Assembly (NCBI GenBank): GCA_028817405.1
Contig: JAPPPS010000130.1
Span: 6,345 to 70,344 of the forward strand
Direction of reading: 5' to 3'
DNA length: 64,000 bases
From: Gammaproteobacteria bacterium
GTDB taxonomy: Bacteria > Pseudomonadota > Gammaproteobacteria > Arenicellales > Poriferihabitantaceae
In this document: in pieces, positions 8,047-53,333 of the stretch
Position numbering within the stretch: position 1 is the stretch's first letter
How the letters are laid out: every line of letters begins with the position of its first letter
Position numbers and translations under genes: made by a program
Notes under the pieces: generated by a model
Told to the model about the DNA's origin: nothing
Seen by the model: only the letters and a program-made list of their open reading frames with translations
Databases searched by the model: none

Positions 8047-8554
8047 GAATATCCACCGTCGTGCCGACCGCGACGCGGTCGAACAAATCCACGACATCGC
8101 GGTTGCGCATGCGAATGCAGCCGCGCGAGCCGGGCCGCCCCATGCTCACATCGTCCGGCGCGCCGTGGATGTAGATGTAGCGGCGCATGCTGTCGACTTG
8201 GCCGAGGCGGTTGCGGCCCGGTTCGCAGCCGCTGAGCCACAGGATGCGGGTGAGAATCCAGTCGCGCTGCGGGGCCGCGGCGCGCATCGCGACGGTGAAA
8301 ATCTCGCCGGTCGGTCGGCGCGCGACGAACACCCCGCCGAGCGGCGCGCCGCCGCCGATTTTGGCGCGAATGATGTGGCGGCCGCGCGGCGTGCGAAAAC
8401 TGCCGTTGACTTCGCCCGCGCCGTTGGCCGCGGTGGACACGCGGTATTGGATGGCCGCGCCGTCGCCGCCGTCGGCTCCGGCATCGCTGAACAGCGTCAG
8501 CGTCTGGGCCGGGAGGTCGACGCGGATGCGCGGTGGTTGCGCGGGCGAATTCAT
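8039..8554 (-). CDS. L,D-transpeptidase (YkuD family)
   Basis: TPRG, YIYIHG...GSRGCIRM motif. Confidence 0.85.
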   Translation of the reverse strand: MNSPAQPPRIRVDLPAQTLTLFSDAGADGGDGAAIQYRVSTAANGAGEVNGSFRTPRGRHIIRAKIGGGAPLGGVFVARRPTGEIFTVAMRAAAPQRDWILTRILWLSGCEPGRNRLGQVDSMRRYIYIHGAPDDVSMGRPGSRGCIRMRNRDVVDLFDRVAVGTTVDIHG

Positions 8555-9105
8555 CGCGGCCGGTCGCCGGAGTCGAGGTGGTCGCCAGAGTCACGGTGGT
8601 CACGGTGGTCACCGTGGTCGCCGTGGTCGCGGTAGCCGAGGTGGTCGAGCAAGTCGGCGCAGGCGCGCTCGATTAAATCCAGCGCGCGGTCGAAGCCGGC
8701 GGCATCGCCGTAATACGGGTCGGGGATTTCGTCGTCGCGGTTTGCGCCGGGCGCGAGCAGCAGGCGGACTTTGTGACGGTGTTTGGCGCCGGCCAAGCGC
8801 GTGAGGTCGGCATGGTTGGCGCGGTCCATGGCGATGATGTGGTCGAATCGCGCGAGGTCGGCGGCCGCGATTTGGCGCGCGCGCAGGCCGCTTAAGTCGA
8901 CGCCGCGCCGCGCTGCGGCGCGTTGCGCGCGACCGTCCGGGCGCGCGCCGAGATGCCAGTCGCCGGTGCCGGCCGAGTCGATTTCAAACCGCGCGCCGAG
9001 TCCGCGAGATTCGACTTGCGCGCGGAACACGCCCTCGGCGGTCGGCGACCTGCAGATGTTGCCGAGGCAGACGAATAGGATGCGGTGGACGGTGGGTGAA
9101 TTCAT
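8551..9105 (-). CDS. low-molecular-weight protein-tyrosine phosphatase
   Basis: CLGNICRSP active-site loop, DSAGT, IPDPYYG. Confidence 0.92.
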   Translation of the reverse strand: MNSPTVHRILFVCLGNICRSPTAEGVFRAQVESRGLGARFEIDSAGTGDWHLGARPDGRAQRAAARRGVDLSGLRARQIAAADLARFDHIIAMDRANHADLTRLAGAKHRHKVRLLLAPGANRDDEIPDPYYGDAAGFDRALDLIERACADLLDHLGYRDHGDHGDHRDHRDSGDHLDSGDRPR

Positions 9106-11529: not shown

Positions 11530-11809
11530 GGGTTTCCTCTTCGATGGAGTCGCCGTCGCGCGCGTATTCGGGCGCGTCCTGTTCGCCGAAAGTCAGTTCC
11601 GGGAACGGCGGCGGCTCTTCCAGAATCGACGGCCCGATGAGTCCCTCGGCGATTTCGCGCAGCGCGACCACGGTCATCTTGTCGTTCTTGGCGTCGACCA
11701 GCGGCTCGGCGCCCAACATCAGTTGCCGGGTCCGCCGCGTCGCCACCATGACCAACTGAAAGCGGTTGTCTACATGTTCCAGACAATCGGTTACGGTTAC
11801 GCGTGCCAT
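11480..11809 (-). CDS. rpoZ: RNA polymerase omega subunit
   Basis: [10 protein letters not shown]...[16 protein letters not shown]...ALREI. Confidence 0.95.
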
Positions 11810-11961
11810 GTTGCTTTCCTCTCTGCGTTGAAGGGTGAAAGTTGAACGGCCGCCATTTTACGGCGACCGCTGTTGCTACTGTGTCACTGTCGTGTCACTG
11901 TCGAATTCATGGTTTCATTCATCGCGCGGTTCATCGCCGCCGGAATCAACCGTCGCCGGAG

Positions 11962-12543
11962 TCAACCGTCGCCGGAATCAACCGCCACCGGCAACACCGC
12001 TTCGAGTTCCGCCAGCGCACGGTCGAACTGCTCGTTGACGATGATGTAATCATACTCGTTTGCGTGGCTCATTTCATCCCGCGCCGCGCGCATGCGTTCG
12101 GCGATGACCGCATCGGCGTCTTGGCGGCGCGCGCGCAGCCGCTGCTCCAGCGCATCCAACGACGGCGGCATCACGAACACCGACTTGGCGGCCGGAAACT
12201 GGCGGCGCACCGCGCGCGCGCCCTGCCAGTCGATTTCCAAGATAGCATGTTTGCCGCGCGAAATCAGCGCCTCAATCGCATCCGCCGAAGTGCCGTAGTG
12301 GTTGCCGAACACGCTCGCGTATTCGATGAACCGGCCGGCCGCAATCATCGCCGCAAACGCGGCCGCGTCGACGAAATAATAATCCACGCCGTGCGTCTCG
12401 CCGGGCCGCTGCGCGCGCGTGGTATGCGACACCGCCAGCGCGGCATCCGGCCGCCTGGCCACCAGTCGCCGCGCCAAACTGGTCTTGCCGGCCCCGGACG
12501 GCGCGGAGAGAATGATGACCGCGGGGGAGGGGGAGTCGTTCAT
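11962..12543 (-). CDS. gmk: guanylate kinase
   Basis: SAPSGAGKTS P-loop, SHTTRAQRPGE, YGTS, LEIDWQGA; ATG at 12543 overlaps the upstream TAA. Confidence 0.95.
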   Translation of the reverse strand: MNDSPSPAVIILSAPSGAGKTSLARRLVARRPDAALAVSHTTRAQRPGETHGVDYYFVDAAAFAAMIAAGRFIEYASVFGNHYGTSADAIEALISRGKHAILEIDWQGARAVRRQFPAAKSVFVMPPSLDALEQRLRARRQDADAVIAERMRAARDEMSHANEYDYIIVNEQFDRALAELEAVLPVAVDSGDG

Positions 12544-13685
12544 TAGTAGTCGACGTCCTCCGGTTCGATGCATTCATCTCCCCTTTTTTTCGCTCTTACC
12601 TTTGCCCAATTTAAGATTTTTATGTAATTCTGTCTGGCACTGGTTATGTCAGAAATTGTCGGGTCGTACCAGTGGTGGTGAACCACATTATTTCTAAATT
12701 TTCTAATCTGATGCATGGCGCTGCCAATGGTTTCGTTTTGAGGACGAAACCCTTCAATTTGGTCGTTGAAGTTGTCGAAATAATTTATCGGCAGACTTTC
12801 TTTCGCTAAAAATTCTTGAATGTTGGTGGCAATTCTCGTTGCCCATGCCGCGCATTTCTCGCGCTTTGAAAGAGTGATGCCGGCTGGAATCCATTCCGGT
12901 TGTGTTGATGCGAGCAGAACGTTCACAACCGTGGCGCCAAATTCAATTTCCGACAGATTTTTTTTCCATTTTCCGGCAAGCAAAAGACCGGCCGCCCATC
13001 CGAGTTCGGGAAGCATATCCGCTCCAAGTTGTTTCCCGCCAATTTTTTTATGGCAATGAGAATAGAATGTTTCACCGGTTTCCTTTTGAATGGATTCCCA
13101 GTCAATCAAATGACGATATGCGTCATCAGCCATAAAATCAAAGACACGCTTTATTTTATGCGTGCGAATGTAAGCGATTATCAACAAAGTTAAGAGTGAG
13201 TTTTCTTTCCAGAGTTGTTTAATGCCCCGCTCATCCGAGACATCGCAACTATAGTTTTGGATTGGCTCCGCGGGAGTCAGCAACCCGTAGAGTCCGGATA
13301 CAATCAGCAGATGGTCGCCGGATTGTTCGTCCAGATGCTGGATGTAATCGTCATTATCGCCAACGGCTTTATGAAATGCTTCATAGAATCTTCCCCCGGC
13401 GTATCTTTTTAGCGCGGGCAGATAACGACTATTGCCTGCTCTGTTATTGGGGTTTATGTCCGGTCCGCGTTGCAATTGTTTGTGCAATGAAATCGGCGCC
13501 GGAGAATTCTCCGGGCGTTCTTTGGTGATGTAATCAAACGCCCGGTTACGCGCCGCGGTTAACTCCTGCATCGCAACCGCATTTTCCGGAAACATATCCG
13601 CCATTTTCCGCCCATTAATGCTGCTGTACTCTTGCCCACCGTCGCATTTATGGTTGGAACAAATCGTCAAAATCAAATTACTCAT
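12543..13685 (-). CDS. YaaA/DUF328-like protein with C-terminal HEPN-like motif; low GC
   Basis: PALKRYAGGRFY and LIVSGLYGLLTPAEPIQNY resemble YaaA; C-terminal IRKFRNNVVH; GGAGG SD; AT-rich relative to flanks. Confidence 0.6.
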   Translation of the reverse strand: MSNLILTICSNHKCDGGQEYSSINGRKMADMFPENAVAMQELTAARNRAFDYITKERPENSPAPISLHKQLQRGPDINPNNRAGNSRYLPALKRYAGGRFYEAFHKAVGDNDDYIQHLDEQSGDHLLIVSGLYGLLTPAEPIQNYSCDVSDERGIKQLWKENSLLTLLIIAYIRTHKIKRVFDFMADDAYRHLIDWESIQKETGETFYSHCHKKIGGKQLGADMLPELGWAAGLLLAGKWKKNLSEIEFGATVVNVLLASTQPEWIPAGITLSKREKCAAWATRIATNIQEFLAKESLPINYFDNFNDQIEGFRPQNETIGSAMHQIRKFRNNVVHHHWYDPTISDITSARQNYIKILNWAKVRAKKRGDECIEPEDVDY

Positions 13686-13711
13686 GACTAAAACCTCCGA
13701 GAGATAAACGG

Positions 13712-14539
13712 TTACTGGGTCGACGCATCCGCCGCATCCGCCTCGCTTGAATCCTCAATCCGCAACTTCCGGTAATCAAAACCGGTCTCGACGGTCGGTT
13801 TAATCACCTTGAAGTACGGCGACACATCGAAGTCGCGCGGGGTGAAAAGGCTGTGGTGGCGGATGTGCAGAATTTCCTGCACGCTGTAATGATACAGCGA
13901 TATTTGCAGGCGGCGGTTGTGGTATTTGGAGATGACGGTTTTCTTTTTTTCCACGCGCGGCAGAATCGGGTAGCGAATCGACTGGAAGGTCTCGGCGATG
14001 AGCGTCGAGCAGATGGCGCGCGACGGGTCGCCGCTGCCGAACGCCAGCATGCGGCGGCGGTAACGAATCGGTATCGGCGGTGTGCGCAGCAGATAACGCG
14101 CCAGGTCGAAGATGTGTTTCAAGTCATAACCGAGGCCGATGCTGTCGACCATGCTTTTTACCACGGTGTCGCGGTCTTCGACGGTCAAGCCGACCGGGCG
14201 GCAGATGCGGGTGTTGAACGCGCGGTATTTGGACAGCGGCGAGGCGATGACGCCGTGCGCCAGTTCGGCCTCAACCAGCGGACACGGCTCGCCGTCGTCG
14301 GTGAACACGCCGGTGGCGTCGCCGGCGTAGAACGCCGAGTGCGACCAAGTCGACTGCGTGAGATATTTAATCGCGGTGCTGATGCGGGTGTCGCCTTCCA
14401 CCAGCAAAATGTCGGCCGGCTGCAAGTGCGCTTCCAGCACCGGCACATCGTAGGTGCAGAACGGTTCGTAGCCGGGAATCGGCGCGCTGAGATAACGCGC
14501 CAAGCGGCGGCCGATGTTGAGTCTGAAGGGGCCGGACAT
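13712..14539 (-). CDS. permuted papain-like (YiiX/YebB, NlpC/P60-related) amidase/hydrolase
   Basis: LQPADILL, TQSTWSHSAFY (His) upstream of ICSTLIA (Cys), and FTPRDFDVSP. Confidence 0.7.
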   Translation of the reverse strand: MSGPFRLNIGRRLARYLSAPIPGYEPFCTYDVPVLEAHLQPADILLVEGDTRISTAIKYLTQSTWSHSAFYAGDATGVFTDDGEPCPLVEAELAHGVIASPLSKYRAFNTRICRPVGLTVEDRDTVVKSMVDSIGLGYDLKHIFDLARYLLRTPPIPIRYRRRMLAFGSGDPSRAICSTLIAETFQSIRYPILPRVEKKKTVISKYHNRRLQISLYHYSVQEILHIRHHSLFTPRDFDVSPYFKVIKPTVETGFDYRKLRIEDSSEADAADASTQ

Positions 14540-14544
14540 GGTGA

Positions 14545-14693
14545 CGGTGTTGTCGGCGGCGACGGTGGATGCGACGGTGTTGCGACGGTGGGCGCGTTGG
14601 TGGCGACGGTGTTGCGACGGTGGGCGTGTTTGTGGTGACGGTGTGGCGGCGGCGGGTGGACCCGCGATGACCTTACGATGACCTACGATGACA
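14545..14693. repeat. intergenic tandem repeats
   Basis: two ~33-bp copies of gcgacggtgttgcgacggtgggcg..., then atgacc(t)tacg x2.5. Confidence 0.75.
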
Positions 14694-14720
14694 GTTGAGC
14701 GCGATTATAAACGCCGGCGT

Positions 14721-15908
14721 TCAAAGTTGCTCGCAAGCCGCGTCCGCGTGATACGGCGAATGCCGCTTGACCGCGTCGATATACCGCTCGACGCCGGATG
14801 TTTCATGCCCGACAAAACGCGCCACGGCATCGGCGAAAGCCGGCTCCGCCAAATAGTGCAGCGACCGCGTCGGCGTGGGCGAGAAGCCGCGCGCGATTTT
14901 GTGCTCGCCCTGCGCGCCGGGGTCGAAGCGCCGCAAACCGCGCTCGATGCACAACTCGATGCCTTGGTAGTAGCAGACCTCGAAGTGCAGGCAGTCGACC
15001 ATCTCGCGGCAGCCCCAGTGGCGGCCGTATAAAGTGTCGTCGTCCAAGTACATTAACGCGGCCGCGATGGGGTGTTCGGCATCGCCATCGCGCTGCGCCA
15101 ATACCAATTGCACTTGCTCTGGCATGGCATCGGCGACCGCGCGGAAAAAGTTTAAGTTGAATGCCGGGTAACCGTACTTGCGGTCGTAGATGGCGCGGTA
15201 CATCGAAGTGAAGTCGCGCCAGTCTTGCGCGGTGGCGGTATGACCGTCGAGGCGGCGGACGGTGACGCCGGCTTGCGCAACGCGCGCGCGTTCTTGGCGG
15301 ATGTTCTTGCGCTTTTTGGCTTTCAATGTGGCGAGGAAATCATCGAAGTCGCGGTAGTCGCGGTTGTGCCAGTGGAACTGGCAGTCGAGTCGCGATAACG
15401 CGCCGCGGATGTTGAGTTGCTCGAACTGGCGCGGCGCAACAAACAAACTATGCGCGCCGCTGAAGTTGCCGCGCCGCATCAATTCGCGCATGCCGTCGAC
15501 CAACTTCGCGGCGATTGTTGTCTCAAAGCCGCGCTCATCTTCGCGCACTAAGACGCGTTGCCCGGTCGCGGGCGTGAACGGAATCGCGTTCACCAACTTC
15601 GGGTAATACGCCAAGCCCGCGCGGTGGAACGCCTCGGCCCACGCGTGGTCGAACACGAACTCGCCCCACGAGTTGTGCTTTTCATACAACGGCATCGCGC
15701 CGACCAATTCATCGCCGTCAAAGCAGCCAAGATGGCGCGGAATCCAACCGCTTGATTCGCCGACGCAACCGTGCCGCTCCATCGCCGCCAAAAATTCATG
15801 GCGGACAAACGGATAACGCCCGCGCGCCAGCGCATTCCACTGGCGCGCGTCGATGTCATCAATAACGGAAAAAGTCGCGATTTTCACTGCGAAACGCAGT
15901 TGGGGCAA
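14721..15908 (-). CDS. GNAT/FemAB-like N-acetyltransferase (DUF482 type); start uncertain (TTG 15908 or nearby GTG)
   Basis: HSWGEFVFDH-like, YYPKL..AIPFTPATG, LYGRHWGC, HFEVCYYQGIE, GAQGEHK. Confidence 0.85.
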   Translation of the reverse strand: MPQLRFAVKIATFSVIDDIDARQWNALARGRYPFVRHEFLAAMERHGCVGESSGWIPRHLGCFDGDELVGAMPLYEKHNSWGEFVFDHAWAEAFHRAGLAYYPKLVNAIPFTPATGQRVLVREDERGFETTIAAKLVDGMRELMRRGNFSGAHSLFVAPRQFEQLNIRGALSRLDCQFHWHNRDYRDFDDFLATLKAKKRKNIRQERARVAQAGVTVRRLDGHTATAQDWRDFTSMYRAIYDRKYGYPAFNLNFFRAVADAMPEQVQLVLAQRDGDAEHPIAAALMYLDDDTLYGRHWGCREMVDCLHFEVCYYQGIELCIERGLRRFDPGAQGEHKIARGFSPTPTRSLHYLAEPAFADAVARFVGHETSGVERYIDAVKRHSPYHADAACEQL

Positions 15909-15960
15909 AGCGGCATTTTATCGCGGATAGGCGCGAGAGGGTAGGGCGGCTGCGGCGCAA

Positions 15961-16050
15961 TTCCCACCGCCACGCCCACAGTCCGCCCCCACCCGCCACG
16001 CCCGCACCTCACCCACCCGCCACGCCCGCAGGCTGTTAAGCGGGCGCCAG
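15961..16050 (+). repeat. REP-like palindrome copy preceded by two partial copies
   Basis: cgccacgcccgcaggctgttaagcgggcgc at 16018-16047; partial ccgccacgccc units at ~15966 and ~15993. Confidence 0.75.
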
Positions 16051-16165
16051 CACCTTTCCCCATCAGCGCGGCGGCGGCACAAAAATCGGCGATTCACCCA
16101 TTTTCGCAAGTTTGCTCCCACCGGCGGCCACAAATTCAGCGGCGAAAATAATACCGCGGAATGTA

Positions 16166-16757
16166 TGAACAGGTTCAAACACATTTGAGACATTTTTAGC
16201 CCAAAAAGGTCGGGTAGCCTCGCAGTTTTTCCATCTACAGAAAACCGGAGTCCACCCGATGCAGATAGAGAGTTTGCGGGTCAAATCATACCGCAGTTGG
16301 AAAGTCGACGAAGCGGCCGGCCGCGCCAAACCCAAACGCCCACGCGCGTTCGAACACCATGCCAAACGATGGCAATACGGCATGCGCGCCGCCGCGCCCG
16401 GCGAACTGGTGCAGATAGACCACATGAGCGTGTCGTTCCCCGGCGCCAGCGTGAAAAACTTCACCGCAGTATGCCCAACCACCGGCTACCTGACCGCCCA
16501 CGCATACAGCCGCGCCACCAGCCACAACGCCGCGCGCTTCCTCGAACATGTGCTGCACGCCATGCCGTTCGCCATCCACTCCATCCAAGTGGACGGCGGC
16601 AGCGAGTTCCGCGCCGCCTTCGAACACGCCTGCCAACAACACTACTGCCACCACCGACCACACGGCGGCAAACACCAAAACTTCCAAACCCCAATGGCAT
16701 ACTATCAATCCCTCAAACAGGCCGCCTGAACTGTCTCATATGTATTGAACCTGTACA
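16166..16757 (+). mobile_element. internally deleted IS481-like insertion sequence (~590 bp)
   Basis: imperfect terminal inverted repeats TGAACAGGTTCAAACACATTTGAGACA (16166-16192) and TGTCTCATATGTATTGAACCTGTACA (16732-16757), enclosing a transposase fragment. Confidence 0.75.
16259..16729 (+). pseudogene. truncated DDE integrase-core transposase
   Basis: PGELVQID...IQVDGGSEF retained; the segment that should carry the catalytic Glu (between ACQQ and HYxHHRPH) and the N-terminal HTH appear to be missing. Confidence 0.7.
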
Positions 16758-16762
16758 GCCCC

Positions 16763-16792
16763 TTGACGGATTATTATCGGCGCGCTTAATAT
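16763..16792 (+). promoter_or_regulatory. sigma70-like promoter
   Basis: TTGACG-N18-TAATAT upstream of ATG 16832. Confidence 0.5.
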
Positions 16793-16831
16793 CCCAAACC
16801 CGCATCATTTTGTCGCAACCGGACCTCCCGC

Positions 16832-17425
16832 ATGGACATCCTTATACTGATTCTTGTCGCAATCGTGTTGTTTGTTGTCGGCGCCGTTTTTGCGGCAAAG
16901 AACAACGCCGAACAAAAGCGGCAAAGCGTTGAACGGCAGGACGCCATCGCCGAAGAGTATGTGGTGCGAGCCAACCGAGGCGGCGGCTTGCCGACGGTGG
17001 ACACCAATGTCATGTTGAAGCGCGGCGAGGCCGCGTTTTATTCCGCGCCGACCGCTTTGTTTGAGACGCGCGCGGTGCGCCACAGCGCCGCCGGGCATGG
17101 CGGCATCCGCGTGGCGCGCGGCGTGTGGATTGGCGGCACGCGCGGCAAGGCGGAAAGCCATCAAGAGTGGCGTCGCATCGATGACGGGCATTTGACCGTG
17201 ACCAATCAACGAATTATTTTTGACGGCGGAAAAACCAATCGCACGGTGCCGCTGGACAAACTGATTTCTTGCGACACCAACATCGGCGAAGTGGAAATTT
17301 CGGCGAGCAACCGGCAAAAAAGCATGGTGTTCACGGCCGGGGAACAAGCCGGCGTGTTGGGCAGCGTCATTAAAATCACTTCCAACGCCATCAACGCCGG
17401 CGCGCCTTATTCGCCGGCCGGTTAA
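16832..17425 (+). CDS. membrane-anchored hypothetical protein with PH-like beta domain
   Basis: N-terminal hydrophobic helix; LKRGEAAFY...GIRVARGVWIG...DDGHLTVTNQRIIFDG pattern resembles bacterial PH-like folds. Confidence 0.6.
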   Translation: MDILILILVAIVLFVVGAVFAAKNNAEQKRQSVERQDAIAEEYVVRANRGGGLPTVDTNVMLKRGEAAFYSAPTALFETRAVRHSAAGHGGIRVARGVWIGGTRGKAESHQEWRRIDDGHLTVTNQRIIFDGGKTNRTVPLDKLISCDTNIGEVEISASNRQKSMVFTAGEQAGVLGSVIKITSNAINAGAPYSPAG

Positions 17426-17449
17426 GTTGCCGACGCGAATTGATAAACG

Positions 17450-17959
17450 ATGAGCGAACAGTCCCACTACGATGTGTTGGGAATCTCGCGCGATGCCGAT
17501 GCTACGGAAATACGCCGCGCATACAAACGCAAAGCGCAACGGTATCACCCCGACAAACGCGAGAATAAAGCGTTCGCCGACCATAAATTCAAACGCATAC
17601 AAGAAGCGTATCGCGTGTTGTCATCGCCGAGTGCGCGCGCCGAATATAATGCGCGACATGCGTTTGACGAAGACATCGACGCCACAAACAGCGCCGATAA
17701 CAAAACGCATGCCGCATCAATCGACGCGCGTTATTACATTTATGAAAACTGGCAAGCGGGCCCGCACAAAGCGGTCATTCATCACGCGGAATGCGGGCAC
17801 TGCAACCACGGTACCGGCCGCTCCGGCCGCAGCACCAATCCGCGTTACGGCAAATGGCATGGCGGCTTTGGCTCACTGGATGATGTCATGGCGTATCGGG
17901 AGACCTTGGGTGTCGCGGTTAAAAAGGAGTGCGCATGCATCGAACGATTGGCGCGTTAG
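17450..17959 (+). CDS. J-domain (DnaJ) protein with C-terminal His/Cys-rich domain
   Basis: HYDVLGIS...IRRAYKRKAQRYHPDK...FKRIQEAYRVLS; C-terminal HHAECGHC...CAC. Confidence 0.85.
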   Translation: MSEQSHYDVLGISRDADATEIRRAYKRKAQRYHPDKRENKAFADHKFKRIQEAYRVLSSPSARAEYNARHAFDEDIDATNSADNKTHAASIDARYYIYENWQAGPHKAVIHHAECGHCNHGTGRSGRSTNPRYGKWHGGFGSLDDVMAYRETLGVAVKKECACIERLAR

Positions 17960-18087
17960 AAGTGCCGGCGTGTTGTGCACTTTACCGCCCCAACCGCGGT
18001 CGCTCCGGCAAGCCGGCGCCATGCGCTGATGCCGACACCGGCTGCGCTATACTTCACCGTCGCCAACCCGCCGCCAGAAGAACCGTC

Positions 18088-18597
18088 ATGAAAAACAAAA
18101 ACGCCCTCACCGTCCGCTCCAACCCGGGTTTAGCCGAACTCAAACGCGCGGAAAATCTCCTCCGAATCACTTCGGAGATACTCGGCAAATCGATTGTGCC
18201 TGGCCACAACCGCACCGATGAACAGGGGCGGAAGCAGGGACATTGGGTTGAGCGGTTTGCCATTGGCTTTGGGGGAGACTTTGTGGAAGAAGATCCATAT
18301 GTTGACGGCGAGAGGCACGGCCACTGGGTTGAGCGGTGGGCTGGCACTGTGCGGGAAGGTCCATATGTGAACGGCAAGAGGCACGGCCATTGGGTTGAGC
18401 GATGCAGCGTTGGCAGTGTGTGTGAAGGCACATATGTTGACGGCAAACGGCATGGCCATTGGGTTAGGCGGTTTGCCAGTGGCAATGTGGATGAAGGCGC
18501 ATATGTGGACGGCAAAGAGCACGGCCGTTGGGTTGTGCGGACACCGGACGGAACAGAATGGACAATAAATTGGCGTCACGGGGAAATCGTGGAATAA
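18088..18597 (+). CDS. MORN-variant repeat protein, paralog 1 (5 repeats)
   Basis: ~23-aa repeats EGxYVDGKRHGHWVER; start set at ATG 18088 by match to paralog 2. Confidence 0.8.
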   Translation: MKNKNALTVRSNPGLAELKRAENLLRITSEILGKSIVPGHNRTDEQGRKQGHWVERFAIGFGGDFVEEDPYVDGERHGHWVERWAGTVREGPYVNGKRHGHWVERCSVGSVCEGTYVDGKRHGHWVRRFASGNVDEGAYVDGKEHGRWVVRTPDGTEWTINWRHGEIVE

Positions 18598-18623
18598 CTC
18601 CGCTATCGTGTGCGATGTTCCAC

Positions 18624-18665
18624 TGCCACGCCCGCAGTCTGCTGAGCGGGCATCCAGCGTTTTTT
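18624..18665 (+). repeat. REP-like palindrome copy
   Basis: tgccacgcccgcagtctgctgagcgggcatccagcgtt. Confidence 0.75.
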
Positions 18666-18714
18666 CCGCCATTCCGTGTTTGACGCGGGGGCGGAAATTT
18701 CTCGCCCCGACCGC

Positions 18715-18745
18715 TTGACACTGCGGTCGAGAGTGTGCGATAAGG
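18715..18745 (+). promoter_or_regulatory. probable sigma70 promoter
   Basis: perfect TTGACA, then TGcGATAAG; GGAGG SD before ATG 18864. Confidence 0.45.
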
Positions 18746-18863
18746 TGAATCGATTTACCAAGCACCCAACACCGACACCATCCCATTGGCTGGAAGCGCC
18801 GAACCCATCGGCAAAGTGCTGAAATCTTGCAATGTATCACTGTCAAACTAATCGGAGGTCAAA

Positions 18864-19178
18864 ATGCGAATCATAGTAACGGCTTGGAATAATGGCGGTC
18901 CTGGCTACGGATTGGGTATCCGCCATGCTGATGTGCGCCTTTTCCGGCGCGAATGGGGCACGGTTACAATCGAATTGCCAGATGGTACCGTGGCGCGCGC
19001 CGACATCGATAAGGACAGTTTTTATGCGAGCTGTCCGCACTTAATTCACAGGAGCATTAAGGAGTGGTTTCGCGCCAACGGCTATCTAACTTGGTCCAGC
19101 GGGAAACCGCCCAAGTTTGAATTGGAATTAATTGACCAAAACAAAGGCGTGTTTCGCCTGTACGATAACCAGAACTGA
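18864..19178 (+). CDS. conserved-looking hypothetical protein (TAWNNG...GKPPKF)
   Basis: strong SD, lower GC, globular composition; resembles a small family seen in accessory regions (recall only). Confidence 0.7.
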   Translation: MRIIVTAWNNGGPGYGLGIRHADVRLFRREWGTVTIELPDGTVARADIDKDSFYASCPHLIHRSIKEWFRANGYLTWSSGKPPKFELELIDQNKGVFRLYDNQN

Positions 19179-19223
19179 CCAGTGCCCGAATCTGACCGGC
19201 CAGCCACACCGCCACGCCCCCAC

Positions 19224-19340
19224 CCGTCACGCCTGCAGTCTGTTGAGCGGGTGTCCAGCGTCTTTACGGTTTTGGTCCGCACCGGAAAGAGAAGACGTTG
19301 GATATCGGTACTGGACTCGACCCGGCCAGCGTGGCGGTGA
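19224..19340 (+). repeat. REP-like composite element
   Basis: ccgtcacgcctgcagtctgttgagcgggtgtccagcgtcttt...aagacgttgga...ctggactcgacccggccagcgtggcggtg (inverted outer arms). Confidence 0.7.
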
Positions 19341-19343
19341 AAT

Positions 19344-19416
19344 GGGTCACTAAAAAGGGTTACCGAAAAGGGTCACTAAAAAAGGTCTTGACACCTTTGG
19401 CAACGAGTAGTTCAAT
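19344..19416 (+). promoter_or_regulatory. three 12-13-bp direct repeats abutting a sigma70 promoter
   Basis: gggtcactaaaa/gggttaccgaaaa/gggtcactaaaa, then TTGACA(19388)-N17-TTCAAT. Confidence 0.55.
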
Positions 19417-19481
19417 CCCACTCAATGGCAATTGCCAGAAAACCCGTTCCACTTTCGCATAAATTCACTTTGAGGAATACA

Positions 19482-19874
19482 ATGTTAGACCCGGAAAATC
19501 CTGAAAGCACGCACGGCTACGAGCCCGAAGATTGGCAAAAAGCCAAAGCGCAAGCGACAGCCCACTTGGTCAGCGTGGCAAAGCGTCAAGATTGGGAAAC
19601 ATATGGCGAACTGGTTAAGGAAATCGACGCCATTTCATTTGCTCCCAACGACTTTGCTTTGGCCGCTCTGTTAGGTCAAATAAGCAGAGAGGAATATTAT
19701 GCTGGCCGAGGTATGCTTACCGCAATCGTGGTGCATAAATATGGCGACAAGATGCCCGGCAAGGGTTTTTATAAACTTGCGCGGTATCTGGGCTTGGATA
19801 TATCCGACAAGGAAGCGCTCTGGGTTTCCGAAACAAAGAAAGTTTGGAACTACTGGAAAAACCAGAGGGGCTAA
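19482..19874 (+). CDS. hypothetical winged-helix-like protein
   Basis: TYGELVKEI...LAALLGQIS...GRGMLTAIVVHK...PGKGFY; GAGGA SD before ATG 19482 (alternative start 19425). Confidence 0.7.
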   Translation: MLDPENPESTHGYEPEDWQKAKAQATAHLVSVAKRQDWETYGELVKEIDAISFAPNDFALAALLGQISREEYYAGRGMLTAIVVHKYGDKMPGKGFYKLARYLGLDISDKEALWVSETKKVWNYWKNQRG

Positions 19875-19992
19875 CAGCAGAGGGGATAACAGGATGGAAT
19901 GTTCCTGATTCCCGTCCGCGCTACTGTATAAACATTGCCGCCCGACTGCGCTACACTTCGCCATCCGCAAACCCGTCGCCAGAAGAACCGTC

Positions 19993-20562
19993 ATGAAAAC
20001 CAAAAATGCTCTCACCGTCCGCCCCGAGCCGGGTTTGTCCGAACTCAAACGCGCCGGCAACCTCATCCGAATCGCTGAGAGGATACTCGGCAAATCGATT
20101 GTGCCTGGCCACAACCGCACCGATGAACAGGGGCGGAAGCAGGGACATTGGGTTGAGCGGTTTGCCGATGGCCAGGTAGAGGAAGGCCCCTATGTGGACG
20201 GTGAGCGGCATGGCCATTGGGTTGAGCGATGGGTCGATGGCGTTGTGACGAAAGGTCCGTATGTGAACGGCGAGCGGCACGGCGATTGGGTTGTGCGGTT
20301 TGCCGATGGCTCTGTGTGGGAAGGTCCTTATGTGGACGGCAAGGAGCACGGCGATTGGGTTGAGCGGTGGGGCGATGGCGATGTGTGGGAAGGCCCCTTT
20401 GTGGACGGCAAGCAACACGGCCATTGGGTTTTGCGGGGTGCCGATGGCGATGTGTGGGAAGGCCAATTTGTGAATGGTGAGCGGCATGGTCGTTGGGTTT
20501 CGCGGGAGCCGAATGGAACGGAAGCGGTAACGCATTGGCATCACGGGGAAATTGTGAAGTAA
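19993..20562 (+). CDS. MORN-variant repeat protein, paralog 2 (6 repeats)
   Basis: same leader as 18088 gene; EGPYVDGxxHGxWV repeats. Confidence 0.8.
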   Translation: MKTKNALTVRPEPGLSELKRAGNLIRIAERILGKSIVPGHNRTDEQGRKQGHWVERFADGQVEEGPYVDGERHGHWVERWVDGVVTKGPYVNGERHGDWVVRFADGSVWEGPYVDGKEHGDWVERWGDGDVWEGPFVDGKQHGHWVLRGADGDVWEGQFVNGERHGRWVSREPNGTEAVTHWHHGEIVK

Positions 20563-20844
20563 CCCCCTCCGCAATCGGTTGCTCTCGCCGTCATGCCCCA
20601 GTCCTGTTCGTGGAAACCATGCCTAGTTTGGCGGTGTTTTTTGCTGGGGGTGGCGATAGGGTTTGCCGTACAATCTTGACAACAGCAATGGTAGGTGCAT
20701 TAATTCCGTTTCCATGAAAATGGCGGTTGCAGTTGAGTGATTGTTCCCGCCATTTTTTTACCCTGTCGCCAACACTCGGCGGCGGAGCATTTGTGGCGAC
20801 TGTGCTACAGTTCGCTTGTATTCGACCAACTATGAGAGGCAAAC

Positions 20845-21237
20845 ATGACGGTATTTGGCAAAACAGCAGTTAGAGCCACTGAAATGCAATGTCGCGGTGC
20901 ATGCGATTCGCCGAGAATTGCCTGGACCGAGGCGGTGAAAAGTGAGACGAAAAGCATAAATATGCGGAGTAAAGTATGCCCTCGGTCGGCATATTTAGGT
21001 CTGTGCGAATATGGCTTAGTTAAAGGCGTGCCGCGCGGTGAATATCTGAAAAAATCATCCGAAAAGTTGAATAAAAAACATGCTGTTGATGCTGTGACCA
21101 AATTAAGGAAAACACCAGAACTGAAAAACAAGCCAATGAAGCTGTGGCGGCTTGTTATTCCTGAACCTAAGCAACATGATGGTCAAATGCATGTTGTGAC
21201 TGCTTTATGGAAAAGCGGTTTGATTCGTTCGGCCTGA
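20845..21237 (+). CDS. DUF6979-like hypothetical protein
   Basis: SPRIAW...CPRSAYLGLCEYGLVKGVPRGEY...KQHDGQMHVVTALW; GAGAGG SD and TGcTACAGT extended -10 upstream. Confidence 0.65.
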   Translation: MTVFGKTAVRATEMQCRGACDSPRIAWTEAVKSETKSINMRSKVCPRSAYLGLCEYGLVKGVPRGEYLKKSSEKLNKKHAVDAVTKLRKTPELKNKPMKLWRLVIPEPKQHDGQMHVVTALWKSGLIRSA

Positions 21238-21249
21238 TATTCGGGCGTT

Positions 21250-21283
21250 CGCGCCTACCGTCGTTGACGCGGCGGTAGGCGCG
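21250..21283. terminator. GC-rich hairpin, possible terminator
   Basis: 11-bp perfect stem cgcgcctaccg/cggtaggcgcg just after the stop; no clear U-tract. Confidence 0.45.
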
Positions 21284-21398
21284 TGTAGCCGTCCCCCCAC
21301 TCAACAGACTGCGGGAGTAGGCTTCCAGAAGACGGAGTGGGGGCGGCGCGTTTTACACGGTGCTTCGCGCCGTGCTAAAAGTCCGGCGACATCAACCC

Positions 21399-21428
21399 GC
21401 GCCCGCTTAACAGACTGCGGGCGTGACG
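21399..21428 (-). repeat. REP-like palindrome copy in inverted orientation
   Basis: reverse complement cgtcacgcccgcagtctgttaagcgggcgc, 28/30 identical to 16018-16047; a further partial core lies at 21300-21320. Confidence 0.8.
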
Positions 21429-21531
21429 GCGGGGGAGCCGCGGGCGTGAAGTGGCGGACATTGCGGGCGAGAGAACCGTGGGCGCGATGAGTGGGGGACT
21501 GCAAGTGCGCCGGATATGTGTCGGTGGTGAC

Positions 21532-44967: not shown

Positions 44968-49177
<4,210 letters not shown>

Positions 49178-49178
49178 C

Positions 49179-50624
49179 ATGCAGCAAGCGAGCGCCAAAC
49201 CGGTTGCCGCGCAAAACGGCGATGATGTTTTTTTGCATCGGATTGGCGCACTCGATGCGGCATTGCTCGACCGCTACCGTGACAAGATTGCCGTTGACCC
49301 CGCCCTGACCCGCCGCATCGTCAGTTTCCAAGCCAACAAAAACCGGCGGTATTACCGCTGGTATAAGTATAAGGAAGCCTTTTCCGCCGAATTGGTGGAG
49401 CGCCTTTTGCGCGTGTACCGGGTTGGACAAGGCAAAATACTGGACCCTTTCGCCGGCGCCGGCACCGCGTTGTTCGTGTCTTCCAACTTAGGGTATGACG
49501 CCGATGGCGTGGAACTCATGCCGGTCGGGCAAAAAATCATCGCCGCCAATGTCGCGGCGCGGGGGGCGAACCGCGGCGGTATTGTCTCGGCAATCGACGA
49601 ATGGCTGAAAAAGTCGCCGTGGAAAACCAAAGGCAAAGCGAAACAATTCGGCGTCCTTCGAATCACCGACGGCGCTTATCCTCAATCCACGCGCGAACGG
49701 ATTGGCCGTTATCTTCATGAGATGGAGAAACAGCCGGCCGAGGCCAAGGAAATTTTGCGGTTTGCGTTGCTTTGCGTTCTTGAGACGGTCAGTTATACGA
49801 GAAAGGACGGGCAGTGCCTGCGCTGGGATTACCGGTCAGGCCGGGGCAACGGCAAGAACAACTTTAACAAAGGCGCGCTCCCGTCTTTTGACGATGCCAT
49901 CAGGGAAAAGTTGTCGCAGATAAGCGCTGATTTGACGCGTTCCGGCTGCACCGACAGTTTCTTGTCGCTGGTGCCGACGGCGCGCAAAGCCGGGCGGATT
50001 AATTTGCTGCGGGGGTCATGCCTCGATATTTTGCCGGGCATCGCGGCCGGCGCTTACAGCGGCATCGTGACCTCGCCGCCTTACTGCAACCGCTACGACT
50101 ACACGCGGACCTACGCGCTGGAGCACGCCTTGCTTGGGGTCAGCGAAGCCGAACAAGTCGCGCTGCGGCAAGCGATGTTGAGTTGCACGGTGGAAAACAA
50201 GGAAAAACGGTTGAGCGATGCGAATCCCGAATGGGGCGGCGCGCTGGCGGCCTGCGACGGCATCCCGTTGCTGCGGGAAATTCTGCGCTATCTGGATGAC
50301 AAGCGGGAAAAGCGGCAACTCAACAACCCGGGCATTGCGCGCATGGTGCGCGGCTATTTCTGCGAGATGGCATGCGTGATTTATGAATGCCACCGCGTGT
50401 TGCGCGGCGGCGGCGTGATGTTCATGGTCAATGACAATGTGAGGTACGCCGGCGCGTCCATATCGGTTGATGCGATTCTGTCCGCCATCGCCGAGAGCGT
50501 GGGGCTGCAAGTGGATGCCATTCTGGTTCTGCCGCAGGGCAAAGGCAACAGTTCGCAGCAGATGGGCGCGCATGGACGCGAAGCGCTTCGCAAATGCGTT
50601 TATGTGTGGCGGAAAGCCGCTTAG
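49179..50624 (+). CDS. amino-DNA methyltransferase (probable m4C) of a type II R-M system
   Basis: ILDPFAGAGT (motif I) before VTSPPY (motif IV); adjacent to a BsoBI-like endonuclease. Confidence 0.88.
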   Translation: MQQASAKPVAAQNGDDVFLHRIGALDAALLDRYRDKIAVDPALTRRIVSFQANKNRRYYRWYKYKEAFSAELVERLLRVYRVGQGKILDPFAGAGTALFVSSNLGYDADGVELMPVGQKIIAANVAARGANRGGIVSAIDEWLKKSPWKTKGKAKQFGVLRITDGAYPQSTRERIGRYLHEMEKQPAEAKEILRFALLCVLETVSYTRKDGQCLRWDYRSGRGNGKNNFNKGALPSFDDAIREKLSQISADLTRSGCTDSFLSLVPTARKAGRINLLRGSCLDILPGIAAGAYSGIVTSPPYCNRYDYTRTYALEHALLGVSEAEQVALRQAMLSCTVENKEKRLSDANPEWGGALAACDGIPLLREILRYLDDKREKRQLNNPGIARMVRGYFCEMACVIYECHRVLRGGGVMFMVNDNVRYAGASISVDAILSAIAESVGLQVDAILVLPQGKGNSSQQMGAHGREALRKCVYVWRKAA

Positions 50625-50660
50625 ACGGTCGCTCAACGATCGCTTAGACAGTCGCTCAAC
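50618..50660 (+). repeat. 20-bp direct repeat pair between the M and R genes
   Basis: cgcttagacggtcgctcaac (50618-50637) / cgcttagacagtcgctcaac (50641-50660). Confidence 0.85.
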
Positions 50661-51614
50661 ATGCCGAACAAGCGCATCCATTCTCCTCAAGACTTGGTCA
50701 CGCCCCGCGCCGAAATCCGCGCTGGGTTTATTGCGCTGGCGTTGGAGAAGACCAAGGAGTCGACGCCGGTTGTCGACCAAGGCCGGGCGCTTAAAGCGCT
50801 CGCTTCCAACGCCAAAAATCCGCAAGCGTTGAGCGCCATCAAGGAAATTCGCGGCGCATTACTGACCGCCGCCGGGCTGTCCGATAAAGCGAAAAATTAT
50901 TTGACCGATTCGGATAAAACAAAAGCCATCAAGAAATTGATTGATGAATTTCTTGCGCCCGAAGGCGGCAACTTTGTCGATGAATTGGTGTACCGGTTTT
51001 TGCTGACCCGCGGCGATTCCCTCGGCGGAAAGATGCGAAACCTCGCCGGCCGACTCGGCGAACACCGTTTCATTCGCATGTTGGCGGCGACTTGCGCCGT
51101 CAGCGGTATAAGCGTCCAATACCTCGATGCCAACGGTGGCGAGTGGCGCGTCGGCATTGAGAATGCGGCCGCGGGAAAAGTCAAAGCGTTGCGCTGGGAG
51201 TCCAACGCAAACGCCCGCACCTTGGTCTGCAACCGAACCGTGCCCATCGTGCGAAAGAATGTGGATTTTTGCCTGCTCGATGGCGCGATGGATGAAGTGT
51301 CGAGCAAAAGCGGGCGGGTCGCGATATGGACCGACCCGCAAAAATATCTCGCGCTCGGCGAGTTAAAAGGCGGCTTTGACCCCGCCGGAGCCGATGAACA
51401 CTGGAAAACCGCGAACTCCGCGTTGTCCAGAATTCGCGAGTCTTTTAAGAAGCGCGGGGTTAATCCCGGCACTTTTTTCATCGGCGCGGCCATCGAGAAC
51501 GCGATGGCGGATGAAATTTATCGCCAGTTAAAAAACGGTTCGCTCTCGAACGCCGCCAACCTCACCAACAAGAATCAAGTCGTTGCTTTGTGTGATTGGC
51601 TGATTCGCATGTGA
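50661..51614 (+). CDS. type II restriction endonuclease, BsoBI/AvaI family
   Basis: RAGFIALALEK, GDSLGG.MRN.AG, KNVD, LGELKGGFDPAGADEHWKTA, FIGAAIE match the recalled BsoBI sequence. Confidence 0.9.
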   Translation: MPNKRIHSPQDLVTPRAEIRAGFIALALEKTKESTPVVDQGRALKALASNAKNPQALSAIKEIRGALLTAAGLSDKAKNYLTDSDKTKAIKKLIDEFLAPEGGNFVDELVYRFLLTRGDSLGGKMRNLAGRLGEHRFIRMLAATCAVSGISVQYLDANGGEWRVGIENAAAGKVKALRWESNANARTLVCNRTVPIVRKNVDFCLLDGAMDEVSSKSGRVAIWTDPQKYLALGELKGGFDPAGADEHWKTANSALSRIRESFKKRGVNPGTFFIGAAIENAMADEIYRQLKNGSLSNAANLTNKNQVVALCDWLIRM

Positions 51615-53333
51615 ATGACGATGCCAAGCGACCGTATTCTCATCCTCGACTTCGGCGCGCAGTATGCGCAGTTGATTGCGCGCGGGGTGCGCGAGTTGGG
51701 GGTGTATTGCGAGATTTATGCGTGGGATGCGGCGTTTGATGACATCGCGGCGTTTGCGCCGGACGGGTTGATTCTGTCCGGCGGGCCGGCCTCGGCGCGC
51801 GGCGTTGATGGCGAAACCCCGGCCGCGCCGGGCGCGCCGGTTACGGTGAACGCGCAAACCCCGGCCACGCCGGTCACGGTGAGCGCACAAACGCCGGCCG
51901 CGCCGGTCACGGTGAACTCGCAAACGCCGGACTCGCCGGTCACGGTGAACTCGCCAACCGCGGCCATGACAAACGCGCAAGCCCCGGCCGCGCCGGCCGA
52001 AATTTTCGGCATGGGGAAGCCGGTGCTCGGCATCTGCTACGGCTTGCAAACCATGGCCGCGCAGTTGGGCGGGGCGGTGGAGTCGGCCGACCGTCATGAG
52101 TACGGCCACGCGCGCATCGAAACTTGCGCCGACAGCCGGTTGCTCGGCGCGAGCGGCGCGGCGTTGGATGTGTGGATGAGCCACGGCGACCGTGTGACAC
52201 AGTTGCCGGCCGGCTTCCAAACCATCGCCGCCTCCGCCAACGCGCCGTTCGCCGCCATCGCCGACGAAGCGCGGCGCTTCTACGGCGTGCAGTTCCACCC
52301 GGAGGTGACGCACACCGCCGGCGGGCGCGAAATCTTGTCGCGGTTCGTGCATGAGGTATGCGGCTGCGGACGCGACTGGGTGCCGGAAAACATCATCGAC
52401 CGCATCGTCGCCGACGCGCGCCGGCAAGTCGGCGACGATGCGGTGGTGTTGGGGTTGTCCGGCGGCGTCGACTCGGCGGTGACCGCGGCGCTGCTGCATA
52501 AAGCCATCGGCGCGCAACTGACTTGCATCTTTGTCGACACCGGCCTGCTGCGGTTGAACGAAGGCGACTTGGTTATGCGCGCCTTCGCTGAGCATTTGGG
52601 GGTGCGCGTGATTCGAGTCGATGCCGAAGCGCGGTTTCTGGAACGCTTGAAAGGCGTCACAGACCCGGAACGCAAACGCCAACTCATCGGCAACTTGTTC
52701 GTGGAAATCTTCGAGACGGAAGCCAAGCGCATCGACGCCGCCAAGCATCTCGCGCAAGGCACCATCTACCCGGATGTCATCGAGTCGGCCGGCCACGCGC
52801 ACGGCGCGGCGCGGGTGATTAAATCGCATCACAATGTCGGCGGCTTGCCGGCGCGCATGCAACTCAAACTGCTGGAGCCGCTGCGCGAGTTGTTCAAGGA
52901 CGAGGTGCGCAAAATCGGTTTGCAACTCAACTTGCCCGCGGCCGTCATCGCGCGCCATCCGTTCCCCGGGCCCGGCCTCGGTGTGCGCATCCTCGGCGAA
53001 GTCAAAAAAGAATACGCCGACTTGTTGCGCCAGGCCGATGCGATTTATCTCGAAGAGTTGGAGAAGCACGGTTGGTATCACAAAGTCAGCCAGGCGTTTG
53101 CGGTGTTTTTGCCGGTCAAGTCGGTCGGCGTGGTCGGCGACAACCGCGCGTACGAATTCGTCATCGCGTTGCGCGCGGTGGAGACGGTCGACTTTATGAC
53201 CGCAAAGTGGGCGCGCCTGCCGTATCCGTTGCTGGAGAATATCTCCACGCGCATCATCAACGAAGTGCGCGGCATCAGTCGCGTGGTCTACGACATCTCC
53301 GGCAAACCGCCGGCGACGATTGAATGGGAATGA
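51615..53333 (+). CDS. guaA: GMP synthase (glutamine-hydrolysing) with repeat insert
   Basis: [49 protein letters not shown]. Confidence 0.97.
51813..51995 (+). repeat. 33-bp in-frame tandem repeat (~4.5 copies) inside guaA
   Basis: [44 protein letters not shown]. Confidence 0.9.

Follow-up and report, generated by a model that had tools for sequence, protein, structure and literature searches.

A YaaA-like domain joined to a HEPN-type domain in front of gmk: a candidate single-chain nucleic-acid sensor and RNase effector

What is an AT-rich gene doing directly in front of gmk, in an essential operon? The question is raised by a 64,000-nucleotide (nt) stretch of DNA, hereafter the window, from a sponge-associated member of the Poriferihabitantaceae (Gammaproteobacteria bacterium, assembly GCA_028817405.1, contig JAPPPS010000130.1, positions 6,345 to 70,344 of the forward strand). 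There, an intact open reading frame (ORF) on the minus strand, 12543..13685, encodes 380 amino acids (aa) and overlaps the gmk start codon with its own stop codon. The guanine-plus-cytosine (GC) content of this gene is 0.458, whereas the window as a whole has 0.638 and the flanking genes 0.61-0.70. We call it the YaaA-HEPN gene (protein P0001), after its matches to the Pfam families PF03883 and PF13643 and an AlphaFold2 (AF2) model of its product. An initial annotation had described an AT-rich gene with YaaA-type motifs and a helical C-terminal segment, and had read it as a single-gene sensor-effector defence protein. The description is confirmed by the base composition, by PF03883 and by the best structural match, 5caj, and the strings quoted in it, LPALKRYAGGRFY, LLIVSGLYGLLTPAEPIQNYSCDV and MHQIRKFRNNVVH, are all found in the translation of the ORF. 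As to function, we consider it somewhat probable that the protein is a conflict or defence system in one chain, a nucleic-acid sensor joined to an RNase effector, analogous to RAZR/PD-T7-4.

Architecture of the YaaA-HEPN protein

Residues 1-265 (12891..13685, minus strand) make up a YaaA/DUF6884-like domain, as judged by PF03883, by Foldseek and by the family profile, in which the domain spans positions 4-265. PF03883 scores 30.4 bits against a cut-off of 29.6, over residues 85-199 and only profile positions 70-176 of 236, and DUF6884 (PF21818) scores 20.3 bits, below its cut-off of 30. The marginal single-sequence Pfam scores are backed by consistent matches across the YaaA-HEPN family: PF03883 is matched by 32 of 32 members, and likewise by all 75 of the relatives with other C-termini that were tested. 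A full-length AF2 model built from the 32 homologs (predicted local distance difference test score, pLDDT, 84.6; predicted template-modelling score, pTM, 0.70) has as its first-ranked Foldseek match E. coli YaaA, 5caj_A, with its ‘cantaloupe’ alpha/beta fold (E 8.8e-7, probability 1.00, target template-modelling score TMt 0.62, 299 columns). Profile and structure comparison thus place residues ~1-260 where the initial annotation had put them, with YaaA.

Two motifs of this domain are conserved. A CxxxK motif of the DUF6884 type, C9-S-N-H-K13, lies at 13647..13661 (minus strand), and an equivalent of LSAxxG, S130-G-L-Y-G134, at 13284..13298 (minus strand). Invariant in the 32 aligned homologs are C9, S10 and K13 of the former; S130, G131, Y133 and G134 of the latter, together with E140, Y145 and C147 that follow it; and Y88, A91, Y95, F100, D183, Y190, R191 and W196. 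The protein shares the motifs PAxxRYxGxxY and SGLYGxLxPxExIQxY with YaaA, and CxxxK and SGxxG with DUF6884. At the position of C9-S-N-H-K13, YaaA carries SPAK.

Proteins of the YaaA superfamily bind DNA in a basic cleft. Pfam curators have proposed CxxxK and LSAxxG as the putative active-site motifs of DUF6884; for the DUF6884 protein YfjM, recovered in pull-downs of abasic and ribonucleotide lesions, modelling predicts base flipping (PMC11701544). DpdC, a DUF328 protein, turns preQ0 that is already in DNA into 7-amido-7-deazaguanine (ADG) (PMC10164549; PMC12839542). The YaaA/DpdC fold is thus able to read, and even act on, a base within nucleic acid. By analogy, the N-terminal domain studied here may go beyond plain DNA binding and recognise or process a flipped base. 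Its fold over residues 1-265 is that of YaaA (5caj), DpdC and DUF6884-YfjM; unlike these, it belongs to a separate clade that always carries a C-terminal effector-type domain, and the gene is accessory, patchy and outside the dpd cluster.

The similarity to YaaA does not extend to orthology. Among NCBIfam models, the best YaaA equivalog gives 29 bits against a cut-off of 392 (the YaaA equivalog cut-offs, of 200-390, all lie far above the score), and the gene is missing from most congeners; we therefore reject orthology to the peroxide-stress YaaA. In public records, members of the family, including P0019, go under the names ‘peroxide stress protein YaaA’ or ‘cytoplasmic iron level regulating protein YaaA’. 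Equivalog scores so far below the cut-offs do not support such labelling.

Residues ~272-368 (12582..12872, minus strand) form a HEPN domain, identified by PF13643 and by four AF2 helices at 274-295, 306-313, 318-336 and 344-368. PF13643, or DUF4145, scores 24.1 bits against a cut-off of 23.1 over residues 304-350. Across the family, DUF4145 is matched by 17 of the 32 members at E<=0.1 (best 4.5e-6), and seven further members match HepT-like, HEPN, HEPN_MAE_28990 or HEPN_Cthe2314. The inclusion of DUF4145 in the HEPN superfamily goes back to Anantharaman et al. 2013 (PMC3710099). A domain-only AF2 model of the C-terminus (pLDDT 87.9) has the HEPN chains HepT 6m6u (6m6u_H), HepS 9oij, 2hsb, YutE 1ylm, 1wwp and 2q00 among its top Foldseek matches, with query template-modelling scores (TMq) of 0.43-0.56 and E>=0.8 throughout. 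We attribute the high E-values to the little information that four-helix bundles hold. A search of PDB sequences with the whole protein returned nothing real. The HEPN assignment, proposed earlier from the letters, is thus borne out by Pfam and consistent with the four-helix model and its HEPN matches, although the E-values of these matches are not decisive.

The R-x4-H string that had been noted in the helical segment is R331-N332-N-V-V-H336 (12678..12695, minus strand; codons AGA AAT AAT GTG GTT CAC). In both AF2 models it closes helix 3 (318-336) and is followed by a loop (337-343) before helix 4. This is the arrangement described in the HEPN survey, in which helix 3 closes with an Rx4-6H motif whose arginine is followed by a polar N, D or H (PMC3710099). 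A hidden Markov model (HMM)-guided alignment took in 86 relatives that cover the region, and in 79 of them the motif positions are occupied. Among these 79, 78 retain R and 69 retain N, while the final position is filled by His in 47 and by Tyr in 27. Close relatives of the window protein have His without exception. Conservation of RxxxxH, expected in the initial annotation, therefore holds for the arginine and for the histidine of close homologs, but fails for the histidine in about a third of the wider family, so RNase activity may not be clade-wide. A large subclade has Tyr at this position, as RNxVEY, with R and N kept (P0037-P0040, P0042, P0044, P0054, P0058, P0085, L017, L020 and others); these proteins may be either inactive binders or users of an alternative catalytic arrangement.

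The protein ends in an acidic tail, E-P-E-D-V-D-Y (residues 374-380; 12546..12566, minus strand), that is conserved at the C-terminal end, closes with an aromatic residue, is modelled with low pLDDT and is predicted to be disordered. Nearly all HEPN-type members have it as E-[PL]-[EK]-D-V-D-Y, whatever their chromosomal site, with EPEDVDY, LKDVDY, LEEIDF and similar variants. Its codons in the window include GGAGG, 13 nt before the gmk ATG. We speculate that the tail could fill the basic cleft as an intramolecular mimic of nucleic acid.

Exchangeable domains behind the N-terminal domain

A profile search of 1.8 billion representative proteins yielded 922 relatives, 205 of them at E<=1e-30. We compared 190 sequences, namely the window protein, 51 homologs from a first search and the best 150 representatives, these sets overlapping. 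Of these, 86 reach through the HEPN region, and 75 join the N-terminal domain (profile positions 4-265) to at least 60 residues of another C-terminus. By Pfam, the other C-termini are ParE_toxin in 13 members (best E 5e-8), the Schlafen domain AlbA_2 (SLFN_AlbA_2) in 10 (best E 6e-14), the NERD nuclease in two (best E 1e-9), YoeB in two (best E 8.5e-5), and TIR_2 (best E 5e-11) and HicA_toxin (best E 7e-10) in one each. At least 10 further members were seen by eye to have HEPN-like C-termini with R[NG]xxxH. Ends of the RelE/ParE type also occur in loci of Alphaproteobacteria and Methanoculleus and in one member of the window’s own family. One N-terminal domain set before exchangeable toxins is a signature of the sensor or regulatory modules of conflict systems.

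A separate group of about 19 representatives joins the N-terminal domain to a module of ~130 aa, ‘VTSGxHNTIFG...DLP...GPGK.G.Q.V.IRVT.G.E’, that has no Pfam match. Its carriers are P0073, P0084, P0090, P0096-P0099, P0104, P0105, P0109, P0113, P0114, P0135, P0147, P0151, P0152 and P0173, with L019 and L025.

How does this architecture compare with known systems? RAZR/PD-T7-4 (ring-activated zinc-finger RNase) is a one-protein defence in which experiments identified DUF4145, a divergent HEPN, as the RNase effector, whose R and H are needed for defence by abortive infection (PMC13017515). The likeness to the window protein is that a single protein has an N-terminal recognition domain and a C-terminal DUF4145 HEPN with R and H. 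The N-terminal domain of RAZR, however, is a Cys4 zinc ribbon whose docking partners are rings of phage protein, whereas that of the window protein is a 265-aa YaaA/DUF6884-like fold, and Pfam gives no zinc-ribbon match in the window protein. Since this fold is of a nucleic-acid-binding type, by analogy a nucleic acid, and not a protein, would be expected as the trigger. The AbiJ-NTD/HEPN proteins likewise have a variable N-terminal domain common to HEPN, restriction endonuclease (REase), TIR and kinase effectors, but the survey that describes them includes no N-terminal domain of the YaaA/DUF328 type (PMC3710099), and neither YaaA nor DUF328 is mentioned in it. A 2025 survey of multidomain RelE/ParE toxins does not mention a YaaA-type domain.

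In CapRel, a fused toxin-antitoxin sensor, one chain carries a regulatory domain that holds the toxin off until a phage cue binds; the toxin is a tRNA pyrophosphokinase. Both toxin and sensor differ from those of the window protein, and the likeness is in logic only. Single-chain sensors with a HEPN RNase are a known kind of system. For the putative sensing module of the YaaA/DUF6884 type and for its family, we found no description in the literature searched.

The C92|gmk site and the distribution of the gene

In the window, the YaaA-HEPN gene lies between a gene for a permuted papain-like C92 (YaeF/YiiX-like) protein upstream (13712..14539, minus strand; Pfam PF05708, 23.8 bits) and gmk downstream (11962..12543, minus strand; Pfam Guanylate_kin, 1e-52), which is followed by rpoZ, spoT and a gene for a low-molecular-weight phosphatase, as judged by ORFs and synteny. 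The overlap with gmk, pointed out earlier, is the pentamer TAATG (12541..12545, minus strand), with TAA at 12545-12543 and ATG at 12543-12541; this ATG begins MNDSPSPAVIILSAPSGAGK, the N-terminus of gmk. The same TAATG overlap is found in L062, a metagenomic contig whose allele is 75% identical to the window’s. On the other side, a spacer of 26 nt (13686..13711, minus strand), with GGAGG at 13694-13698, separates the C92 stop codon from the YaaA-HEPN start codon. We find no terminator-like site on the coding strand between the YaaA-HEPN gene and gmk (scan of 11800-16200), and none on the minus strand in the 26-nt spacer. Promoter and terminator counts in 11800-16200 are at the level of shuffled sequence, and the one weak promoter-like site within the 3' end of the YaaA-HEPN gene is not above chance. 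Neither junction has flanking repeats or an integration scar. Farther away, just upstream of a FemAB-like gene, positions 16000-21500 of the window are of lower GC (0.51-0.58) and contain a transposase-like fragment as well as genes for a J-domain protein and MORN-repeat paralogs.

The order usual in the genus is FemAB-like, C92, gmk, rpoZ, spoT, and a homolog of the YaaA-HEPN gene is found in four of 61 related genomes. In G002, G004, G005 and G006, whose gmk-adjacent C92 proteins are 70-78% identical to that of the window, the C92-gmk junction is empty, the two genes being 36-220 nt apart or overlapping; in G002 they overlap as ATGA. Alleles of the YaaA-HEPN gene stand directly before gmk in G003 (49% identical) and in L062, and a 45% allele stands directly after C92 in L058, a contig that ends before the gmk position. 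In G011 and a sister contig, the junction holds a hydantoinase/ABC-transporter block, a 46-48%-identical YaaA-HEPN allele and an ORF with a nuclease-like D..E-V-K motif; the G007 junction has nothing but such an ORF, of 174 aa. Neither the YaaA-HEPN gene nor C92 was found upstream of gmk in G010 and G001. The alleles of the C92|gmk site are one well-supported clade (100/99). Their identity to the window’s allele is 46-50%, while that of gmk is 79-88% and that of spoT 85-91%.

Other alleles sit elsewhere. The prpF|rraA site of a Pseudomonadales lineage is occupied by a second clade, which has DUF4268 as a neighbour and, in part of the strains, an AAA_14/DUF4143 ATPase as well. A third allele is flanked by aspS and an amidase gene. 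One relative whose C-terminus differs sits among BrnT/BrnA, NYN, DruA, AAA_14/DUF4143 and transposase genes, and REase-ARP is also among the neighbours at other sites. The neighbourhood survey that the initial annotation had called for thus finds variable sites beside DUF4268, AAA_14/DUF4143, toxin-antitoxin (TA) and transposase genes. In all eight contexts for which it was compared, the gene has a GC of 0.37-0.50 against a locus GC of 0.55-0.65, 9-19 points lower. In its own genome, it is the only match to PF03883. The YaaA-HEPN gene is accessory, and C92|gmk is a variable insertion site.

These comparisons also bear on two points raised at the outset. Coupling to gmk-rpoZ-spoT is physically real and recurs in the genus, but at a variable site, and alleles occur elsewhere at prpF|rraA and between aspS and the amidase gene. 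The absence of yicC, which had been remarked on, is real, with no PF03755 match in the whole 93%-complete assembly, but irrelevant to the insertion: yicC is absent assembly-wide and never stands before gmk in the same-genus loci examined, so it is not missing as a consequence of the insertion. In most of these loci, gmk is preceded by C92.

No conserved small partner or antitoxin gene was found across 10 contexts, the neighbours differing from site to site; a type II TA module with a separate adjacent antitoxin is therefore rejected. Two individual candidates for an obligatory partner were also rejected. The ORF with the D..E-V-K motif (CDLRYGGIAIEVKAAG), of 174-186 aa and without a Pfam match (L055, from G007, ~8090-8600; L001, 9155-9715; L007, 9152-9676), accompanies the gene, downstream of it, in G011 and L007 alone, and in G007 it occurs by itself. 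The C92|gmk hotspot may thus carry it as a second cargo. A 109-aa protein with a signal peptide, YNP...W repeats and weak Kelch matches is encoded just upstream of the YaaA-HEPN alleles in L062 (1-365) and L004 (5610-5963), only in these two, and is absent from 12 genus representatives. The L062 and L004 alleles are ~43% identical to each other and lie in different chromosomal contexts, and yet their DNA is 93% identical across the upstream gene, the spacer and the initial ~38 nt of the YaaA-HEPN gene, after which identity collapses. Such a pattern would arise if recombination had taken place at the gene's conserved 5' end, or if a metagenome contig were chimeric.

A second insertion of a defence-type gene set is present in the same window. 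A restriction-modification pair of the BsoBI type (49179-51614, plus strand) lies between guaB (47606-49177) and guaA (51615-53333), 1 nt from the former and 0 nt from the latter. The methylase matches N6_N4_Mtase (5.9e-9) and the endonuclease Endonuc-BsobI (7e-124), and the GC of the pair is 0.55-0.61 against 0.63-0.72 in the flanks. C92|gmk and guaB|guaA are thus two nearly spacer-free insertions of defence-type genes, both in guanine-nucleotide operons. As a side reading, sponge-symbiont genomes may slot defence genes into essential guanine-nucleotide operons, which would secure their expression and retention.

Proposed mechanism and competing explanations

How might such a protein work? 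In the one-chain defence model, the N-terminal domain would, by analogy, be a nucleic-acid-reading sensor or regulatory module, and the HEPN domain would be the effector, a metal-independent RNase using R331, N332 and H336. At rest, the HEPN site would be off, with the protein monomeric, or held by the N-terminal domain and/or the acidic EDVDY tail. A trigger in the N-terminal pocket would be a foreign or abnormal nucleic acid, such as base-modified phage DNA, an RNA-DNA hybrid or a lesion. Its binding would free or dimerise the HEPN domains and so create a composite active site; mRNA, tRNA or rRNA would then be cut, and the infected cell would stop growing, as in abortive infection. We infer the RNase activity, the toxicity, the trigger, the regulatory role of the N-terminal domain and of the tail, and the phage defence. 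Coupling into an essential operon implies probably constitutive production, which would require control after translation. We regard the position before gmk as a genus-specific insertion site that gives operon-driven expression, with no functional link to (p)ppGpp or GMP.

Of the explanations considered, defence is the best supported, circumstantially, by the patchy distribution, the low GC, the hotspots near defence, TA and mobile genetic element genes, and the swapped toxin domains. Several results weigh against it. The PF03883 and PF13643 scores of the window protein are both only ~1 bit over their cut-offs, and every Foldseek match of the C-terminus has E>=0.8. When compared with PDB sequences, the C-terminal profile gives weak matches around RN..H (E 0.07-2.6) to a CRISPR-associated protein, HepS and ApeA. 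In 27 of 79 wider relatives, Tyr takes the place of the presumed catalytic His. Searches with P0001 matched none of the families of PADLOC-DB v2 at E<=1, and collections of phages, plasmids and viral contigs gave no relatives; scans of PHROGs and NCBIfam gave nothing informative beyond weak YaaA matches. The single-gene defence function originally proposed thus agrees with distribution, composition, hotspots and toxin fusions, and lacks a match among known defence families, phages and plasmids. Finally, translational coupling to an essential operon would make expression of a toxin gene constitutive and call for tight post-translational control, and, because no conserved immunity or antitoxin partner accompanies the gene, this self-control would have to be intramolecular.

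If the invariant pocket is catalytic, then the protein could instead be a repair or modification enzyme, in which the N-terminal domain acts on a flipped base or lesion and the HEPN bundle is a non-toxic accessory, for example in removing RNA from RNA-DNA hybrids. The polar putative active-site residues C9, K13, E140, C147, D183 and R191 are invariant, DpdC of the same superfamily is an enzyme on DNA (PMC10164549), and YfjM, whose model contains a flipped base, was recovered in pull-downs of abasic and ribonucleotide lesions (PMC11701544). The change of His to Tyr in one third of the broader HEPN-type clade, the absence of a visible partner antitoxin and the probably constitutive expression with housekeeping genes also fit. 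We nevertheless consider this explanation rather unlikely: fusions of the same N-terminal domain to ParE/RelE, HicA, Schlafen, TIR and NERD are hard to reconcile with it, as are the absence of the gene from most congeners, its evolution at a much faster rate than the flanks, and its foreign GC everywhere beside TA, defence and transposase genes. Still less probable, in our judgement, is a selfish addiction gene, a fused TA-like unit in which the N-terminal domain is a cis-acting antitoxin and which is kept, without any phage defence, by its wedge in an essential operon and by the cost of its loss. Its C-terminal partners include the classical type II TA toxins ParE/RelE, HicA and YoeB, and HEPN, the insertion is nearly spacer-free with a stop/start overlap with gmk, and the single clade of alleles at one site suggests long residence. 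Yet the gene is missing, through loss or because it was never gained, from most of the genus members with an intact C92-gmk junction, which argues against strong addiction, and a large conserved domain with an invariant pocket exceeds the needs of a simple antitoxin. The distinction from defence is in any case not sharp, as many TA modules are themselves defence systems.

Two further explanations carry little weight. A functional tie to gmk-rpoZ-spoT, for instance as a regulator of the stringent response or the guanine pool that senses RNA or nucleotides, would agree with the position of the gene upstream of gmk in the window, G003, G011, L007 and L062 and beside C92 in L058, with the translational coupling of two alleles (window and L062) and with the location of the second nearly spacer-free insertion, guaB|guaA, in another guanine-nucleotide operon. 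However, five of seven other same-genus genomes have C92 by gmk without the gene, G010 and G001 lack both, other clades sit at prpF|rraA and aspS|amidase, the G007 junction holds only the unrelated nuclease-like ORF, and the GC content is foreign. We reject functional coupling to gmk or spoT on this distribution and regard such a tie as very improbable. That the gene is a decaying, horizontally acquired remnant without current function is the least credible of all. Low GC and patchy presence would suit a remnant, but the frame is intact and a 98%-identical variant, P0002, exists, which is also the cluster representative of the window protein. Moreover, the ratio of non-synonymous to synonymous substitution (dN/dS) is 0.16-0.30 in both domains (window allele against two other alleles), which indicates purifying selection on a working gene, and 29 columns are invariant across 32 homologs.

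Defence by a single chain thus remains the explanation that we favour for the window protein. A broader proposal, which we put forward tentatively and think doubtful as yet, is that the whole YaaA/DUF6884-like clade consists of widespread, hitherto unrecognised modular innate-immune sensors, in which a base-flipping pocket akin to DpdC's would recognise something specific to the nucleic acid of an invader and license the fused effector. The features read might then, just as tentatively, include hypermodified or 7-deazaguanine-type bases, RNA-DNA hybrids and replication intermediates, and the effectors licensed might possibly be several HEPN families, RelE/ParE, HicA, a Schlafen-type RNase, NERD and TIR.

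What would follow for the family and its hosts? The equivalog tests correct a habit of annotation, that of calling such proteins ‘peroxide stress protein YaaA’. The nearly spacer-free insertion embedded in an operon, seen twice in one window, offers a testable point on how reduced symbiont genomes carry defence genes. The N-terminal domain clade heads more than 200 sequence clusters with at least six kinds of effector, a pattern by which genuine immune sensors have been recognised time and again. If the immune-sensor proposal is true, the clade would be a new class of sensor in bacterial immunity and, given that DpdC edits a base inside DNA, a clue to what the YaaA fold reads in nucleic acids.

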